Virus record (IMG/VR): IMGVR_UViG_3300028907_000004 | Coordinates: 14,464-78,463 of that record | Length of the DNA: 64,000 bases | Origin: a virus | Taxonomy: Duplodnaviria > Caudoviricetes | Reading direction: 5' to 3' (one strand) | Shown: piece after piece, positions 13,633 through 44,198 of the stretch | Numbering within the stretch: position 1 is the first letter of the stretch | Layout of the letters: each line of letters starts with the position of its first letter | Notes under the pieces: model-generated | Seen by the model: only the letters and a program-made list of their open reading frames with translations | Database searches by the model: none | Told to the model about the DNA's origin: nothing | Made by a program: the position numbers and the translations under genes

Positions 13633-14490
13633 CATTTCGGACTAGGGAAGTCCGAATGGGAGGTGTATCAGACCAGAAAGGTCCGAATGAAAATTCATAC
13701 GGCAGGGGTCCGAATTATGATATCAGACCAGAAAGGTCCGAATCATGAAAGCGGACTTCCCTAGTCCGGATTGAAAACCATACTGCGGGGGTCCGGTATC
13801 GCGGCCATTTCGTACTAGGGAAGTCCGAAAGCAGACACCATGCTGCAGGACGGTGCCCGTGTGTAAATACCGGAAGGGACCCCCGGAAGCGGACGGTGAC
13901 GGACGCTGCAGCATGCTGCAGGACGGTGTCGGGGTCCGTCCGCTTCCGGACCTTCCGGACAGCACGGTGTCGGACGGTGTCGGACCCCCGGAAGCGGACC
14001 CCGTAGGACCCAGGACCCCTGGCCACGCTGGGTCCGGAAGGGGTCTGCCGGAAGGCCACATACACTGGAAGTCTGCCCCCTTGGTGCCGGAAGGCCACAA
14101 ACGCCATCACCCGCGCCAAGGACCCACCGGAAGGCCACATACACCACAGGTCTGCAGGCATTCGGACTTCCCTAATCCGAAAAGCACCAAAAGCCATAGG
14201 GAATGAGGGGAAAAGCACCAATTTTCCCCATAGCCAATTTTCCTACACATTTTTATAGGTGCCACACCACGTAAAGGGCACCGACAAAAAGAAGGGGTCC
14301 GCTTTCCCTACGGGGTCCGCTTCATTTCCACCCTACGTCAAATCATTCGCAACCTAGTCCGCTTCCGGACCTTTCGGACACCCCCGCTTTCCTACGTCAA
14401 ATCATAGACCAAAAAGAAGGGGTCCGAACCCTTCCCACGGCCAGACCCCTTTATTGTTTCCATACTATTGGGCAACCTAGTCCGAAAGCT
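13633..14490. repeat. non-coding repeat block 2 (dyads, direct and inverted repeats)
   Basis: CGGACTAGGGAAGTCCG x4 (two with one mismatch), TATCAGACCAGAAAGGTCCGAAT x2, CCGGAAGGCCACA x3, CCTACGTCAAATCAT x2. Confidence 0.85.
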
Positions 14491-38000: not shown

Positions 38001-38354
38001 GTGGCCAGACGAAAACCGCCGAAGACGAAGGAAATCACGCTCAAAGAGCTTCTGTATAAAATACGGAAGACCTATGACGACGCCATAGACGAACTACGCA
38101 AGGAACAGGAACAGAAATTGCGGGAAGCCATTACCAAATTCTGCCCACTTCCCAAAGAAAAAGAGTTTCTTGTGGCGGATTACTCCTTCAAAGGGAAAAC
38201 TTTCCAATACAAAGACTTTCGGCATCAATGGGGCGATGTTATTCTGTTCGGCGGGACGCTTCGTAATAATGGCGAAGTATCAGAAAAACAGTATTGCGAG
38301 TCCAGAATCAACACCGAGCATATAAAAATCACAGTACCCGCAGAGGAAGAGTAA
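38001..38354 (+). CDS. hypothetical protein
   Basis: GGAGG RBS with GTG start. Confidence 0.65.
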   Translation: MARRKPPKTKEITLKELLYKIRKTYDDAIDELRKEQEQKLREAITKFCPLPKEKEFLVADYSFKGKTFQYKDFRHQWGDVILFGGTLRNNGEVSEKQYCESRINTEHIKITVPAEEE

Positions 38355-40966
38355 TGGCCGGATTCTTTCAGAAGGATGACGTATCACACGGAGCTAGGGT
38401 CAAGCCCAAGCAAAAAGTCGAAGCGTTTGGAACTTGCGAGACTTGCGGGCTGTATGAATATGGAAATTCCGTCAAACCCTTTGGAGAGAACAGAAAGCGC
38501 ATAATGATTGTGACCGAAACCCCTTCAGAAGGGGAGGCCCGAAAAGGCAAGATGTGGTCTGGGGAGCAAGGGCAGCTTCTCCGATCCATTTTGCGCGAGA
38601 ACGGAATTGACCTGAATCGGGATTGCGTGTCCATCTACGCAGTACGATGTAACATTCCAGAAGACCGCAACCCCCAACCCAACGAAGTTATCGGGTGTCG
38701 GGATAAACTGTTCAAAGCCATCGAGAAATACGAGCCTAGACTGGTCGTATCATTGGGCTATTTTGCTTTGTTTGCTCTTATAGGGCATCGGATGGGCGAC
38801 GGGCTGGGCGGCACGCTTGATCGCTGGAGAGGGGCCAAAATTCCGTATCACGAAATCGGAGCGTGGCTGTGTCCTACATTCCATCCTATCTACGTGATGG
38901 CAAACGAGAAAAACCCCAACGTCGAACTCTACTGGGAACGGGACATCAAGAATGCTATATGCCAGCTGGACAAAGAACTTCCAAATCCCATTAACGAAGA
39001 TTCGGTTGACGTTTTGGTGGAGCCGAAAGACATCAAAGATCGGCTTGGTTATCTCCTTTCCCGTCCAGACGAAATCAGAGCCGCAGTAGACTGGGAAACA
39101 ACGGGCCTGAAGCCCCATGCCAAGGGGCACCGCATCTTTACCGCCGGATTTTCTACGGGGCTTGATAACACATTTGCCTTTAAGATGGAACCGCAGTACC
39201 GGGAACCGCTCATACAAATCGCCAAAAGCCGAACCGTGGCGAAAATAGCGGCCAACATGAAATTCGAAGATACGTGGGCCCGGCAATGCCTGGGGACACA
39301 TATCAACAATTGGTATTGGGACACTATGGTTGCGCAGCATGTTATCGACAACCGCCGTTACATTACCGGCCTCAAATTCCAATCCGCTGTCCGTTATGGC
39401 GTATGGGATTATGATTCTGAAATCTCTCCTTACTTGAGGGCCGAAGACGAAAGCAACGCAAACGCCTTCAACCGCATATATCAGGCCCCCTTACCGAAAC
39501 TGCTAAAGTACAACGGTATGGACTGCCTACTTGAGTTCCTTCTCCATGAAGATCAGATTTCCGAAGTAAACGAACAAGGCACTATGGACGGCTACATGCT
39601 ATTACATGCCGGAATACTTGCGCTGTCCGATATGGAATGGCGCGGCCTTCCGGTAGAAGATACGCACGTGGTCCAAGAGATCAGACGCCTTGAACAGGAA
39701 GTCGCAGAAATCGAACAAAGCATATGGGCGTCCAAAGAAGGGAAGAAATGGAAAAAGAAGTATGGAACGGACGCCAATTGGAATAGTAATCAGCAGTTTG
39801 TAGAAGTGCTTTCTGAATGCGGCGTAGAGTTTGAAAAGAAGACCGCCAGTGGGCAGTTCGCCGCCGACAAGGGCGTTCTGGAGATGTTGGACCATCCCAT
39901 TGCGAAGCAAATCCTACGTGCCAGAAAGCTGACGAAGAACGGGGGAACATTCCTGGCCAATATCCGGAAAGAGGCCGTAAGTGGCTCTCTCCATCCAATA
40001 CACAACCTTCACAAGGTTATCACATTTCGGTCTTCCTGCGAATCCCCGAACACGCAGAACATGCCTAAACGTGACGAAGAGTCCATGAAGATCGTCCGGG
40101 CGTCCTTTCGCGCCCCGAAGGGTAAGTGTATTGCTGAAATCGACTATTCCGGTGTTGAGGTCCGGGTGGGGTGTTGCTACCACCGGGACAAAAATATGGA
40201 GCGGTACATTCTCGACACTTCTACCGACATGCATAGGGACGAAGCCTGTTCCATATTTTGTTTTGATCCCTATTACATCAACACTGAAGTAATTCAGGGA
40301 AGCGACGACTTGGCCCAGAAATACTTCAAGGCGATTCGAAACAGCGCAAAAAACGGATGGGTCTTTGCCCAGTTCTATGGTGACTGGTACAAGGCTTGTG
40401 CGAAGAACATCTGGAATCAGATCACTCACTGGAACCTCAAGGCCCCGGACGGACGGCCCTTGTTTGACCATCTCCGAAAACAGGGAATCAAAAACCTCAA
40501 GGATTTCGAATCCCATCTCAAGGACTGTGAGCGGAAACTCTGGGAAGAACGCTTTGGTGGGTACGGTAAGTGGAAGGAGAAGACCTGGAAGAAGTATATG
40601 AAACAGGGCTACCTGGACACCTATACGGGTATGCGGTTGTCGGCCCTTTCCTCCAGAAATGAAATCCTCAATGCCCCGATCCAGGGAAGCGCGTTCCACT
40701 GCCTGTTATGGTCCGTTATTGAAATGAACAAGAAGCTCAAGAAGGAAAAGTGGGAAACCGTGCCAGTAGCCCAGATTCATGACTCTTGTATTTTCATAAC
40801 CACTCCTGACGAGATAGATGAATTGTATAAAGTAGCACACGAGATAATGTGCGTAAAGATTGTAAAACACTGGCCCTGGCTAGTCATTCCACTTGAAATA
40901 GATATGGACATTACAGAACCGGGAGGGGCCTGGAGTGAGCAAGAGTCCTATAAGCCCACAAAATAG
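38354..40966 (+). CDS. polA: family A DNA polymerase with N-terminal UDG-like and 3'-5' exonuclease domains
   Basis: CETCGL..TFHP (UDG family 4-like); DWETTGL (ExoI); IDYSGVEVR, R-x3-K-x7-YG, QIHDS (motifs A, B, C). Confidence 0.93.
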   Translation: MAGFFQKDDVSHGARVKPKQKVEAFGTCETCGLYEYGNSVKPFGENRKRIMIVTETPSEGEARKGKMWSGEQGQLLRSILRENGIDLNRDCVSIYAVRCNIPEDRNPQPNEVIGCRDKLFKAIEKYEPRLVVSLGYFALFALIGHRMGDGLGGTLDRWRGAKIPYHEIGAWLCPTFHPIYVMANEKNPNVELYWERDIKNAICQLDKELPNPINEDSVDVLVEPKDIKDRLGYLLSRPDEIRAAVDWETTGLKPHAKGHRIFTAGFSTGLDNTFAFKMEPQYREPLIQIAKSRTVAKIAANMKFEDTWARQCLGTHINNWYWDTMVAQHVIDNRRYITGLKFQSAVRYGVWDYDSEISPYLRAEDESNANAFNRIYQAPLPKLLKYNGMDCLLEFLLHEDQISEVNEQGTMDGYMLLHAGILALSDMEWRGLPVEDTHVVQEIRRLEQEVAEIEQSIWASKEGKKWKKKYGTDANWNSNQQFVEVLSECGVEFEKKTASGQFAADKGVLEMLDHPIAKQILRARKLTKNGGTFLANIRKEAVSGSLHPIHNLHKVITFRSSCESPNTQNMPKRDEESMKIVRASFRAPKGKCIAEIDYSGVEVRVGCCYHRDKNMERYILDTSTDMHRDEACSIFCFDPYYINTEVIQGSDDLAQKYFKAIRNSAKNGWVFAQFYGDWYKACAKNIWNQITHWNLKAPDGRPLFDHLRKQGIKNLKDFESHLKDCERKLWEERFGGYGKWKEKTWKKYMKQGYLDTYTGMRLSALSSRNEILNAPIQGSAFHCLLWSVIEMNKKLKKEKWETVPVAQIHDSCIFITTPDEIDELYKVAHEIMCVKIVKHWPWLVIPLEIDMDITEPGGAWSEQESYKPTK

Positions 40967-41741
40967 CAAACGAATTCGTTTGGTGCTTACAAAACGTACA
41001 GATTTGCGCCTTTTGATACGAATGGAAGATCACTATTCAAAACCACAAGGTTTTGTAGGAAGAAATTTATGTTATGCTGTGTATTGCGATAACGCCTATT
41101 ATGGACACATAGTGGCCGGGTCCGCTACCAAGCACTTGTCTGGAAGGCATGAATTTCTAGGAACCACACAAGAACAGCTTAACAATATAGTGAACAACAT
41201 CTTTTTTAATGTGTCCCCAGTCGAAGGAAAGTATCCATTTAGAAATTTTACATCTGCTGTTGTAAAAGAATTTGTAAAAAAAGTAAAAGTGGATTGGCCT
41301 AGATTTTATCAAGATTCTGTGCTAGGGTTTGAAACGCTTGTAGAACTCCCAAGAAAAGGAACACTATACCTACGCGCTGGTTGGTCTGTTGTCGGTCAAA
41401 CAAAAGGCTACACGTGCAAAAGAACTGCCGGCACAGGAACGGACTCTTGGAGTGGAAAGCGGGTTTGGAATACCGATCCGGAACAATTACGCCCTAAATT
41501 GATATTGTGTTTTCGAGTAAAACCAAAAAGGAGAAACCATCATGCCCCTTCACTTGGACCATCGTCCCAAAACCCTCAAGAAGGTTGTAGGCCAGGGCGC
41601 GACGGTAGCTGCCCTCAAGGCGGTACTGGAACGCGACGACATCCCGCACGCCTTCCTCTTCCACGGCCCGTCCGGGTGCGGAAAGACCACCCTGGCCAGA
41701 ATCGTAGCCAAAAAGCTGGGATGTTCGGAAATGGATATTAA
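40935..41741 (+). CDS. DUF4338 (DruA)/Mom-like protein
   Basis: HYSKPQGFVGRNLCY; GFETLV..RKGTLYLRAGWSVVGQTKG; AT-rich; last 200 nt overlap next gene. Confidence 0.6.
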   Translation: MSKSPISPQNSKRIRLVLTKRTDLRLLIRMEDHYSKPQGFVGRNLCYAVYCDNAYYGHIVAGSATKHLSGRHEFLGTTQEQLNNIVNNIFFNVSPVEGKYPFRNFTSAVVKEFVKKVKVDWPRFYQDSVLGFETLVELPRKGTLYLRAGWSVVGQTKGYTCKRTAGTGTDSWSGKRVWNTDPEQLRPKLILCFRVKPKRRNHHAPSLGPSSQNPQEGCRPGRDGSCPQGGTGTRRHPARLPLPRPVRVRKDHPGQNRSQKAGMFGNGY

Positions 41742-43605
41742 GGAGTTGAACGTGGCGGATGTGCGCGGTATCGACTCTGTGCGCGAAATTACCCGTTCCA
41801 TGATGCTTCGGCCCATGGGGGGAAATGCGCGTGTGTGGATTCTTGACGAATGCTTTCCTGCCAACACCCCAATAACTACGCCGACTGGAGAAAAGCCCAT
41901 ACAGGAATTAGTGGAAGGGGATTCTGTATGCTCTCTGTTTGGAAAAAACGACGTTGTGGAAAAAACATTTAGAAAAGAAATTCCTCTCAGCAGGGTTGTT
42001 CGGATTGACTTTTCCAACGGGAAGGTTCTTTTTTGTTCGGACCACCACCAGTTCTTTACCCCGGACGGTTGGAAGTTCGCAAAAGACTTGATTTCTGGGG
42101 ACTTTACTTTTAGCATCCTTCGTAATACTATGGGAGAAAACGGAGGACTTTATGAAGAGGTACAAGAGAACTATTTGTGTGGTGTGCCGAACGAAGCTCA
42201 AGCCCCACCAGAAAGTTTGCTGTTCGATAGCGTGTCGAAGTCGTTTGCGGGTAACGAAAAAGACCAGACTGTGCGAATACTGCCAAGTGAAAAAGATACC
42301 ATATTACCCGAATCGTCAGGAGAAGTACAACCGGAAATACTGCTCTCTTCAATGTCTGGCAGCAGCGAAAATGGAGAATCCGGAGTTTCGGAAAAAGCTC
42401 CACAATCCGGAAGTGTCGCAGAAGATAGCCTTGGCGCAGAAGGCTTTTTATTCGACAGAAGCGGGGAAAGCGGAAGCGCAGAAAATATCTATTCGCATGC
42501 GAACGAACAACCCTATGGAGAGTGCGGATGTTGTAGAAAAAATGCGAGTGACGAAAGAGCGGAACGGAACGTTGCGCCTACCGCCGAAGATTCGTGGTGG
42601 GAACGGTCAATTAACGCTTCCCCAGAAAACACTTCATGGGCTTCTGGGTCCGGATTGGAAAGCGGAGTTTGTGGTGAATACGGGAGTAAAGAGAATGTGG
42701 AGCCGTCCCATTTACCCCAATCATTACAAACTGGACTTGGCGCTTCCGGGACTGCTTCTTTGCGTAGAGGTAGACGGAGCGAATCACAGAACGAAGCTGA
42801 TTTCCTCTCAAGATCAGAAAAAGACGGAATTTCTGAAAGGGTTAGGGTGGACCGTATTACGTGTTACGAACGAGGAGGTAATGACGAACTCTTCCTTGGT
42901 GTTGTCGAAGATACAGAAAGAAGTAACGGCTTTGTTACGATGTACGACGTAACAGTAACGGGCCACCCTAGCTACTTTGCAAATGGTTTCGCGGTACACA
43001 ATTGTCACGCCATGAGCAAGGACGCGCAGAACGCGCTTCTCAAGCCGCTGGAAGATTGCCCCGACCACGTGTATTTCATGTTGTGTACTACCGATCCCCA
43101 GAAGCTCATTGCTACCATCCGGAATCGGTGTTCGCAGTTCGCCCTTACTCTTGTTTCCGACGAAGACTTGGCCGACTTGTTGAACGCCGTAGCCGCAAAA
43201 GAAGGCGTGGAAATTCCCGAATCGGTCATCAACAGTATCGTGTCCGCTTCCGGGGGATCGCCGCGTGCCGCCCTGGTCCACCTGGATAAGGTCAAGGACT
43301 TGCCCGAAGATGAGATGGAAAAGGCCGTTTCCCGAATCGACACCAACGCTTCTGCCGCCATTGACCTTTGCCGGGCCTTGTTGAAAGATAAGCCCAATTG
43401 GTCCGAAATCGCCAAGGTACTGTCGAACCTTTCCGGGGGAGAACCGGAGCAGATCAGGATGGCTGTATTGGGCTACTGTAACGCCATCCTGCTGAAGGGG
43501 AAGTTCAACGGAAGGGCGTGCTTGGTTATGGAGTGTTTCAAAGACCCCTTTTACAATGACGGCAAGTTCCGTCTTACTCTTGCTTGCGCCGCTTCAGTGG
43601 CGTAG
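41542..43605 (+). CDS. clamp-loader AAA+ subunit (DnaX/RFC-like) containing an intein
   Basis: HRPKTL..VVGQ, GPSGCGKTT, spliced Walker B WILDE-CHAMS, QNALLKPLE, TIRNRC. Confidence 0.92.
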   Translation: MPLHLDHRPKTLKKVVGQGATVAALKAVLERDDIPHAFLFHGPSGCGKTTLARIVAKKLGCSEMDIKELNVADVRGIDSVREITRSMMLRPMGGNARVWILDECFPANTPITTPTGEKPIQELVEGDSVCSLFGKNDVVEKTFRKEIPLSRVVRIDFSNGKVLFCSDHHQFFTPDGWKFAKDLISGDFTFSILRNTMGENGGLYEEVQENYLCGVPNEAQAPPESLLFDSVSKSFAGNEKDQTVRILPSEKDTILPESSGEVQPEILLSSMSGSSENGESGVSEKAPQSGSVAEDSLGAEGFLFDRSGESGSAENIYSHANEQPYGECGCCRKNASDERAERNVAPTAEDSWWERSINASPENTSWASGSGLESGVCGEYGSKENVEPSHLPQSLQTGLGASGTASLRRGRRSESQNEADFLSRSEKDGISERVRVDRITCYERGGNDELFLGVVEDTERSNGFVTMYDVTVTGHPSYFANGFAVHNCHAMSKDAQNALLKPLEDCPDHVYFMLCTTDPQKLIATIRNRCSQFALTLVSDEDLADLLNAVAAKEGVEIPESVINSIVSASGGSPRAALVHLDKVKDLPEDEMEKAVSRIDTNASAAIDLCRALLKDKPNWSEIAKVLSNLSGGEPEQIRMAVLGYCNAILLKGKFNGRACLVMECFKDPFYNDGKFRLTLACAASVA
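41851..43002 (+). mobile_element. intein (384 aa) in clamp-loader Walker B
   Basis: starts CFPANTPITTPTGEKPI, block B CSDHHQF, ends MYDVTV...YFANGFAVHN followed by +1 Cys. Confidence 0.92.
42152..42952 (+). CDS. DUF559/Vsr-like (EDxHD) homing endonuclease nested in the +1 frame of the intein
   Basis: own GGAGG RBS at 42142; CxxC/CS-xC repeats; YKLDLA..LCVEVDGANH..QDQKKTEFLKGLGWTVLRVTN. Confidence 0.88.
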   Translation: MKRYKRTICVVCRTKLKPHQKVCCSIACRSRLRVTKKTRLCEYCQVKKIPYYPNRQEKYNRKYCSLQCLAAAKMENPEFRKKLHNPEVSQKIALAQKAFYSTEAGKAEAQKISIRMRTNNPMESADVVEKMRVTKERNGTLRLPPKIRGGNGQLTLPQKTLHGLLGPDWKAEFVVNTGVKRMWSRPIYPNHYKLDLALPGLLLCVEVDGANHRTKLISSQDQKKTEFLKGLGWTVLRVTNEEVMTNSSLVLSKIQKEVTALLRCTT

Positions 43606-43613
43606 GAGGCCAT

Positions 43614-44198
43614 ATGAGCATTCGAGATCGTGACTTGGACTATTACGCGGATTTAGAGTTCAACCCGGAGAATTTGGGCGAGGAGTGGCAAAAACAGCCA
43701 ATCCTTTATTCCCGATACGCCGACCTGGCCGCTGAAGCTGAACTGGCATACAACAAGGCCGTCGAATACAAGAAGACGGTACGCAGTCAGATTTGGCTGG
43801 ACGTAGCAAAGGCGGGGGAAGGACTTCTGGGCGATGGCGTAAAGCCCACGGAAAAGAACGTGGAAGCCTACATGCGCCAGGCCCCGAAATACATCAAGGC
43901 AAAGGAAGCGGAACTGGAAGCGAAGCGCGTTATGGATGTTCTGAAAAACGCCGTGTTCGCTTTCCATCAGCGGAAGGTTGCGTTGGAGTCTACTGTTCAG
44001 CTGGTAGTTTCCAAGATTTATGCCTCTCCGTCCGAGCCGAAAGAACTGCGCCAGCTTGCCGAGTCGATTTTGCAGGCTTCGTCTGTAAATAAGATTCGGA
44101 AGGCTATGTCTGCGTCTTCTGCGGATGATGATAACGATGACGCGGAAGATGAAAAACCTGTTGTGAGAAAACGTCTTGGATCCAAACGTACAAAGTAA
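43614..44198 (+). CDS. UvsY-like recombination mediator (probable)
   Basis: DLEFNPENLGEEWQKQPILYSRY pattern, coiled coil, precedes SSB and RecA. Confidence 0.55.
   Translation: MSIRDRDLDYYADLEFNPENLGEEWQKQPILYSRYADLAAEAELAYNKAVEYKKTVRSQIWLDVAKAGEGLLGDGVKPTEKNVEAYMRQAPKYIKAKEAELEAKRVMDVLKNAVFAFHQRKVALESTVQLVVSKIYASPSEPKELRQLAESILQASSVNKIRKAMSASSADDDNDDAEDEKPVVRKRLGSKRTK

Follow-up and report, generated by a model that had tools for sequence, protein, structure and literature searches.

The window analysed here is a stretch of 64,000 nucleotides (nt), positions 14,464 to 78,463 of the IMG/VR virus record IMGVR_UViG_3300028907_000004 (Duplodnaviria; Caudoviricetes). The record is 78.5 kb long and is rated complete by CheckV. 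We conclude with high confidence that the window carries a mobile intein in a phage clamp-loader gene, and that the homing endonuclease of this intein is a separate gene located inside the intein in the +1 frame. About 800 nt can be read as two proteins, and one of the two frames is constrained only to avoid stop codons, which makes the locus a case of dual coding under measurable selection.

The clamp-loader intein and the gene inside it

The host open reading frame (ORF; 41542..43605, plus strand, as are all features below) encodes a precursor of 687 amino acids (aa), intein included, of an AAA+ clamp loader resembling the gamma/tau proteins of DNA polymerase III. The precursor matches the clamp-loader family PHROG 5846 with an E value of 2.5e-66, and also the Pfam families DNA_pol3_delta2, AAA, and RFC lid. 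The matches to both databases fall in two stretches with ~380 residues between them. The N-extein (103 aa, 41542..41850) contains the Walker A motif GPSGCGKT and ends with the Walker B residues ILDE. The C-extein (200 aa and a stop codon, 43003..43605) begins with Cys+1 and reads CHAMSKDAQ. The junctions are WILDE/CFPANT and AVHN/CHAMSKD (slashes mark the predicted splice sites). The intein is thus inserted between DE and CH of the Walker B motif, with the cysteine nucleophile at position +1. The spliced clamp loader is predicted to be 303 aa long, which is the length of the intein-less homologue in a related phage (L015).

The insert, 384 aa long (41851..43002), has the residues of a class-1 intein, namely C1, S63-x-x-H66 in block B, D366 in block F, H383-N384 at the C-terminus, and the following Cys+1. 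In the intein alignment, C1, H66, D366, H383, and N384 are invariant across the family. Residues 16-384 match the Pfam family Intein_splicing (41.5 bits, cut-off 35.8) and residues 1-44 match Hint_2, while no family in PHROGs matches the intein itself. The preliminary description of this DNA had placed here a contiguous 384-aa intein that splits Walker B, runs from C1 to HN, is followed by a +1 Cys, and stays open throughout, and all of these features are found.

In the AlphaFold2 model of the intein, confidence is restricted to residues 1-91 and 327-384, which are beta-rich with a predicted local distance difference test score (pLDDT) of about 85-93. The N-terminal splicing half (residues 1-91, 41851..42123; pLDDT 83-93) lies in the part of the intein that is singly coded, up to 42151. 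The C-terminal half (residues 327-384, 42829..43002) scores 84-92 for the most part and 64 in one block. The two segments are predicted to form the Hint fold. Between them, residues 92-325 have a pLDDT below 50, mostly near 30, and the linker as a whole (residues 92-326, 42124..42828) is predicted to be disordered; in the intein frame it is stop-free but otherwise unconstrained.

The nested gene (42152..42952, 266 aa and a stop codon) starts 301 nt from where the intein begins and is therefore in the +1 frame. It is preceded by the Shine-Dalgarno (SD) sequence GGAGG (42142..42146), 5 nt before the ATG, and is present in a single copy in the virus record. Its product matches DUF559 (PF04480) with an E value of 2.8e-12 and 46.9 bits (cut-off 20.6), as expected from the earlier proposal of a separate +1-frame gene with a GGAGG, zinc fingers, and a Vsr/EDxHD-type nuclease. 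The AlphaFold2 model of the protein, built on a 12-sequence alignment, has a mean pLDDT of 84.7. The fold is of the Vsr type, with matches to 3hrl, I-Bth0305I, and Vsr; in the profile search, 3hrl is found at 6e-12 and I-Bth0305I (PDB 3r3p) at 7e-4.

The Vsr/EDxHD-type domain occupies residues about 153-263 (42608..42940) and contains the invariant residues D195, E206, D208, H212, D221, and K224. D195, E206, D208, H212, and D221 are candidates for the catalytic residues of the composite EDxHD motif, given their invariance in the nuclease alignment and their position within the DUF559 core. The protein also contains conserved NNPM and RGGNG motifs. Upstream of the nuclease domain, two Cys4 zinc-finger-like units (C10/C13/C25/C29 and C41/C44/C64/C68; 42179..42355) are positioned near the N-terminus, and the four cysteines of the second unit are invariant in the alignment. 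The units are likely to bind DNA. Their matches to FCS/MYM-type finger profiles are weak (E 0.008-0.03), and for this reason we give them no family name.

Selection on the two reading frames

To find out how far the overlap departs from chance, the codons of the nested ORF were shuffled synonymously 5000 times and stop codons were counted in the other frames. No stops occur in the intein frame, where 9.8 are expected on average, and none of the 5000 shuffles is stop-free. The third frame contains 18 stops, and 18.1 are expected. The same is seen across 70 distinct nested ORFs of the family: the host frame contains 0 stops against about 905 expected, and the third frame 1565 against 1416. That both frames must stay stop-free, as had been supposed from the window, is consistent with these counts.

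The preliminary description had suggested comparing the ratio of nonsynonymous to synonymous divergence (dN/dS) per frame in homologues. The closest relative is L010. Compared with it, the window has a dN/dS of 0.17 for the nuclease frame (66% amino-acid identity), 1.5 for the intein frame (41%), and 1.1 for the third frame (42%). Among seven independent pairs, dN/dS in the nuclease frame is 0.16-0.49 in six, with synonymous divergence (dS) saturated in the remaining one, and dN/dS in the host frame is 0.8-1.7 in all seven. The nuclease frame is under purifying selection for its protein sequence. For the intein frame the sole constraint is the absence of stops, except over the last ~120 nt of the overlap. 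With both frames open beyond chance, and with purifying selection seen for the nuclease frame but not for the other, the locus belongs to the non-canonical, overlapping-frame inteins. The low pLDDT of the central residues and the dN/dS of 1.5 also support the proposal that the centre of the intein, read in the intein frame, is a non-functional linker.

The exception is the 124-nt stretch 42829-42952, which codes doubly for folded parts of both proteins. In the intein frame it encodes the C-terminal Hint strands, and in the nuclease frame it encodes a strand and a helix at the C-terminus of the nuclease (modelled at residues 234-239 and 240-265, respectively).

Recurrence, mobility, and other states of the family

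A profile scan of IMG/VR returned at least 447 confirmed relatives, and the layout was inspected in the best 80. All 80 have a host frame without stops over the nuclease ORF, and in all of them the nuclease occupies the +1 frame. The arrangement had been called rare in the preliminary description; on the contrary, nesting appears to be the rule in this nuclease-intein family. Junctions could be parsed in 74 loci and nearly all read hhDE/CF...HN/CH. Clamp loaders are the hosts in 61 of the 74, and the other hosts among the 80 include at least 10 SNF2 helicases, other superfamily 2 (SF2) helicases, and two terminase large subunits. In the family members the nested stop codon lies 8-77 nt before the end of the intein (mode 65 nt), always in the same register. 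The layout is the same in the clamp loaders L004, L005/L006, L009, and L010, in the helicases L007 and L014, and in the SNF2 helicase L013. One contig, IMGVR_UViG_3300044800_000040 (68.7 kb), has two inteins with nested nucleases, L016 and L030, in a clamp loader and an SNF2 helicase, and is naturally suited to studies of how the element may pass from one Walker B site to another in a single genome.

Relatives in GenBank phages were found only by protein-level searches: blastn of the whole gene against these phages gave no match, and tblastn gave 40 records. In Vibrio phage 1.088.O and Pseudomonas phage MR14, the nuclease lies in the +1 frame of an SF2 helicase intein with the junctions DE/CF...HN/CHH. 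Cultured carriers, including Vibrio phage CP-T1, Vibrio phages of the Nahant collection, and Pseudomonas phage MR14, make experiments feasible.

Annotation captures one of the two frames at a time. On the sister contig (L010:3388-5457), automatic gene calling retains the nested nuclease and recognises just a C-terminal piece of 221 aa of the clamp loader; the N-extein and the N-terminal half of the intein go uncalled. The GenBank phage records inspected show the reverse, with the host gene alone annotated; among the matches listed, nothing is annotated at the matching position except a helicase or a host protein that is uncharacterised. Annotation pipelines limited to a single frame per locus will therefore give a wrong label to one of the two genes, nuclease or host.

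The history of the intein is not that of the phage. The exteins of the window and of the sister phage L010 are nearly identical (dS 0.17; 95% nucleotide and 97% amino-acid identity; 97% also for the N-extein), and dS in the adjacent DNA polymerase gene is 0.21. In contrast, dS in the singly coded N-terminal half of the intein is 2.5, and the whole inteins share 49.5% amino-acid identity. The divergence of the inteins greatly exceeds that of the flanks; therefore, the two inteins have not been inherited together with the phage backbones since these split. One or both of them have been gained or replaced at the same site. An intein-less allele exists as well. In the related phage L015, the clamp loader is uninterrupted, its N-terminal part can be aligned with the N-extein, and it shares 89% identity with the C-extein. 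It reads DE/AHQLSKDAQ where the window after splicing would read DE/CHAMSKDAQ, and the DNA at its empty site is GACGAA/GCCCAC.

The family is also found in other states. L012 is a free-standing nuclease gene in a phage contig. In L097 (P0015; 1501-5898), a UvrD helicase contains an intein at VDE/CF...HN/CQ with a DUF559 nuclease in frame and without zinc fingers. The methylase gene adjoining this helicase has a faint LAGLIDADG match and may contain another intein. L096 (P0016; 2501-4968; 67% G+C) is a fractured gene, in which a 536-aa ORF combines the N-extein, the N-terminal half of the intein, C2H2 fingers, and the DUF559 nuclease, and the C-terminal half of the intein with the helicase C-extein forms a separate gene that overlaps this ORF by 10 nt. 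L008 is a decayed form, in which a mini-intein of 203 aa retains a truncated remnant of the nuclease. The family thus joins three kinds of intein that had been described apart from one another: mini-inteins, split inteins with free-standing Vsr-like genes, and canonical in-frame inteins.

We put forward tentatively, and as rather less likely than not, that the window element is one member of a large, as yet undescribed lineage of composite mobile elements to which these states belong. A zinc-finger Vsr/EDxHD gene would have invaded a mini-intein once, stayed in the +1 frame, and spread over the Walker B sites of at least four families of P-loop NTPases (clamp loader, SNF2, other SF2 helicases, and terminase). 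If so, the free-standing, in-frame, fractured, and decayed relatives would document the whole proposed pathway of nuclease gain and split-intein origin in one family, and a single, old, and widespread lineage would raise the interest of the family. Members are found in each state, and the proposed pathway is therefore testable by phylogeny.

Proposed mechanism, alternatives, and known systems

We propose the following mechanism. Translation of frame 0 would give the 687-aa precursor, in which the Hint halves (residues 1-91 and 327-384) would meet across a disordered tether of ~235 residues. Class-1 splicing in cis by C1, the S/TxxH block, D366, H383-N384, and Cys+1 would then release the 303-aa clamp loader and rebuild the Walker B sequence DECH. 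Ribosomes starting at the ATG at 42152 behind the GGAGG would produce the 266-aa protein, with its two zinc fingers, a helical region, and the Vsr/EDxHD (DUF559) domain. In co-infecting phages, the nuclease would cut intein-less alleles, i.e., Walker B sites without the element, and the intein together with the nuclease gene would be copied into the cut site when the break is repaired. As the family appears to target conserved Walker B sites, it could supply new site-specific enzymes.

The template of the nuclease would be the host-gene mRNA, or else a transcript from a non-canonical promoter, because a scan of 41300-43700, which includes the whole intein and is blind to phage-specific promoters, found no sigma-70-like promoter. 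The host-gene mRNA is the most likely template. The nested gene of L010 is likewise preceded by GGAGG, and SD-like purine runs are present upstream in L004, L007, and L009. The 111-nt RNA context of the nested start is no more stable than shuffled sequences (z +0.56). In the minimum free energy and centroid folds, a weak candidate hairpin (42116..42147) pairs an anti-SD segment (42116-42123) with the SD region (42140-42147); its z score is -1.1 in the window and -3.6 in L010. We speculate that ribosomes translating the intein frame open this hairpin, which would tie synthesis of the nuclease to translation of the host gene. The coupling is kept as speculation because the hairpin is not seen in the folds of L005, L007, and L009.

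Several points count against the proposed mechanism. An SD-like 4-mer is present upstream of the nested start in only 34 of 63 family members, the promoter scan is negative, and internal initiation at 42152 is judged from the SD sequence and the conserved start. The match of the nuclease to I-Bth0305I is marginal by sequence alone, although the structural match is good. In addition, the cleavage specificity of the nuclease and efficient splicing of a Hint fold with a 235-residue disordered insert are predictions.

Four alternatives were weighed against a nested gene in a mobile intein. The preliminary description had named as its refutation a sequencing error whose correction would put the nuclease in frame. 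A sequencing or assembly frameshift in a canonical intein has a precedent in the in-frame DUF559 domain of the UvrD helicase intein L097, but the window would need two compensating indels. The nested ORF has its own start, SD sequence, and stop, and the intein frame avoids stops to a highly significant degree. In 80 of 80 independent metagenomic loci the +1 nesting is the same, as it is in genomes of cultured phages from different laboratories, among them independent GenBank records, and we regard such an error as excluded for practical purposes. Less improbable, but still unlikely, is that the nested ORF is an inactive relic, untranslated or unable to cut, in an intein kept by vertical descent alone. 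Decay is known in the family (L008), and expression of the nested ORF here is judged from its sequence. However, the ORF is full length, retains all invariant nuclease and zinc-finger residues, has a strong SD sequence, and evolves under the constraint described above relative to its nearest relative; the sharply different inteins in two phages with near-identical flanks also argue for recent mobility.

The other two alternatives concern how the nuclease is made and whether the insert splices, and we consider both very improbable. The nuclease could be made by programmed +1 frameshifting as a fusion with the N-extein and the N-terminal half of the intein. L096 is a natural example of such a fusion; there, the C-terminal half of the intein and the C-extein are a separate gene. 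Against frameshifting, an ATG stands behind GGAGG in both the window and L010, and the N-terminal zinc finger follows directly after the ATG and aligns with the starts of the relatives. No slippery site or stimulatory structure was found around the nested start, with no significant z score for the RNA fold. Alternatively, the insert could be non-splicing, and the clamp loader could work with a 384-residue loop, as proposed for the hidden-HNH insertion of ShiLan; out-of-frame nuclease insertions without a splicing domain have been described (PMC11855218). Here the Hint domain is complete, however, and the splicing residues are conserved across the family. Moreover, the insert splits the Walker B motif at DE/CH and is followed by Cys+1 at the position where the intein-less allele has alanine. 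A nested nuclease gene in a splicing, mobile intein is therefore the reading that we retain.

Nuclease genes that overlap an intein in another frame or run antisense to it have already been published, and the arrangement is not new as a kind. In the literature searched, we found neither a sense-strand overlapping Vsr/EDxHD nuclease in a contiguous intein nor the present family, although an earlier report in subscription journals is possible. In actinobacteriophages, inteins contain antisense LAGLIDADG, antisense Vsr-like, and frame-3 endonuclease VII-like nuclease genes (bioRxiv 10.1101/2025.01.02.630785). As in the window, these inteins are contiguous, with a nuclease gene placed between the splicing blocks and outside the intein frame, and the intein frame over the nuclease is unstructured. 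For these cases it was proposed that a free-standing nuclease gene invaded a mini-intein and that spread between genes occurred via a shared nucleotide-binding site. However, the Vsr-like nuclease there is antisense and the same-strand case is endonuclease VII-like in frame 3, whereas here a Vsr/EDxHD nuclease with zinc fingers is in the sense +1 frame. The hosts also differ, the present ones being clamp loaders, SNF2/SF2 helicases, and terminases of Vibrio and Pseudomonas phages and uncultured viral contigs.

A cyanobacterial dnaX intein has a LAGLIDADG gene in the +2 frame (bioRxiv 10.64898/2026.09.14.751524); that preprint credits Gorbalenya 1998 with the first hint of an out-of-frame intein nuclease. 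Both systems have a host of the DNA polymerase III gamma/tau family, an overlapping sense-frame nuclease with its own SD sequence, a disordered intein frame, frame-dependent dN/dS, and coexisting intein-free, mini-, and full-length alleles. They differ in nuclease (LAGLIDADG versus Vsr/EDxHD), frame (+2 versus +1), and genome (cellular versus phage); this comparison covers features other than the insertion sites.

The first link between Vsr-like nucleases and inteins came from free-standing genes located between the halves of split inteins (Dassa et al. 2009, PMC2677866). These fractured genes share with the window the nuclease type, phage-like genomes, and replication host genes. In them one host gene is divided into two ORFs, by a stop ahead of the nuclease gene and a start behind it, and splicing occurs in trans, whereas in the window the intein frame runs without a stop from 41542 to 43605 and would give one precursor that splices in cis. 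The 3' end of the nuclease overlaps the coding sequence of the C-terminal intein half by 6-69 bp in the fractured genes and by about 124 nt here. The prototype EDxHD homing endonuclease I-Bth0305I (PMC3239194) differs from the present nuclease in being encoded by a group I intron and having N-terminal NUMOD-type motifs; the present nuclease resides in an intein and has Cys4 fingers and the NNPM and RGGNG motifs.

Two genes lie directly upstream of the clamp loader. At 38294-40966, a DNA polymerase A gene encodes an N-terminal uracil-DNA-glycosylase-like domain, and its orthologue in L010 matches the Pfam families UDG and DNA_pol_A. Between this gene and the clamp loader, a 268-aa ORF (40935-41741) extends 200 nt into the clamp-loader gene. 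It has no match at E <= 0.01 in Pfam, PHROGs, or NCBIfam, and a DUF4338/Mom-like reading was not confirmed by profiles. The sister phages L010 and L015 lack the ORF and have the polymerase gene directly next to the clamp loader; the ORF is therefore an insertion.

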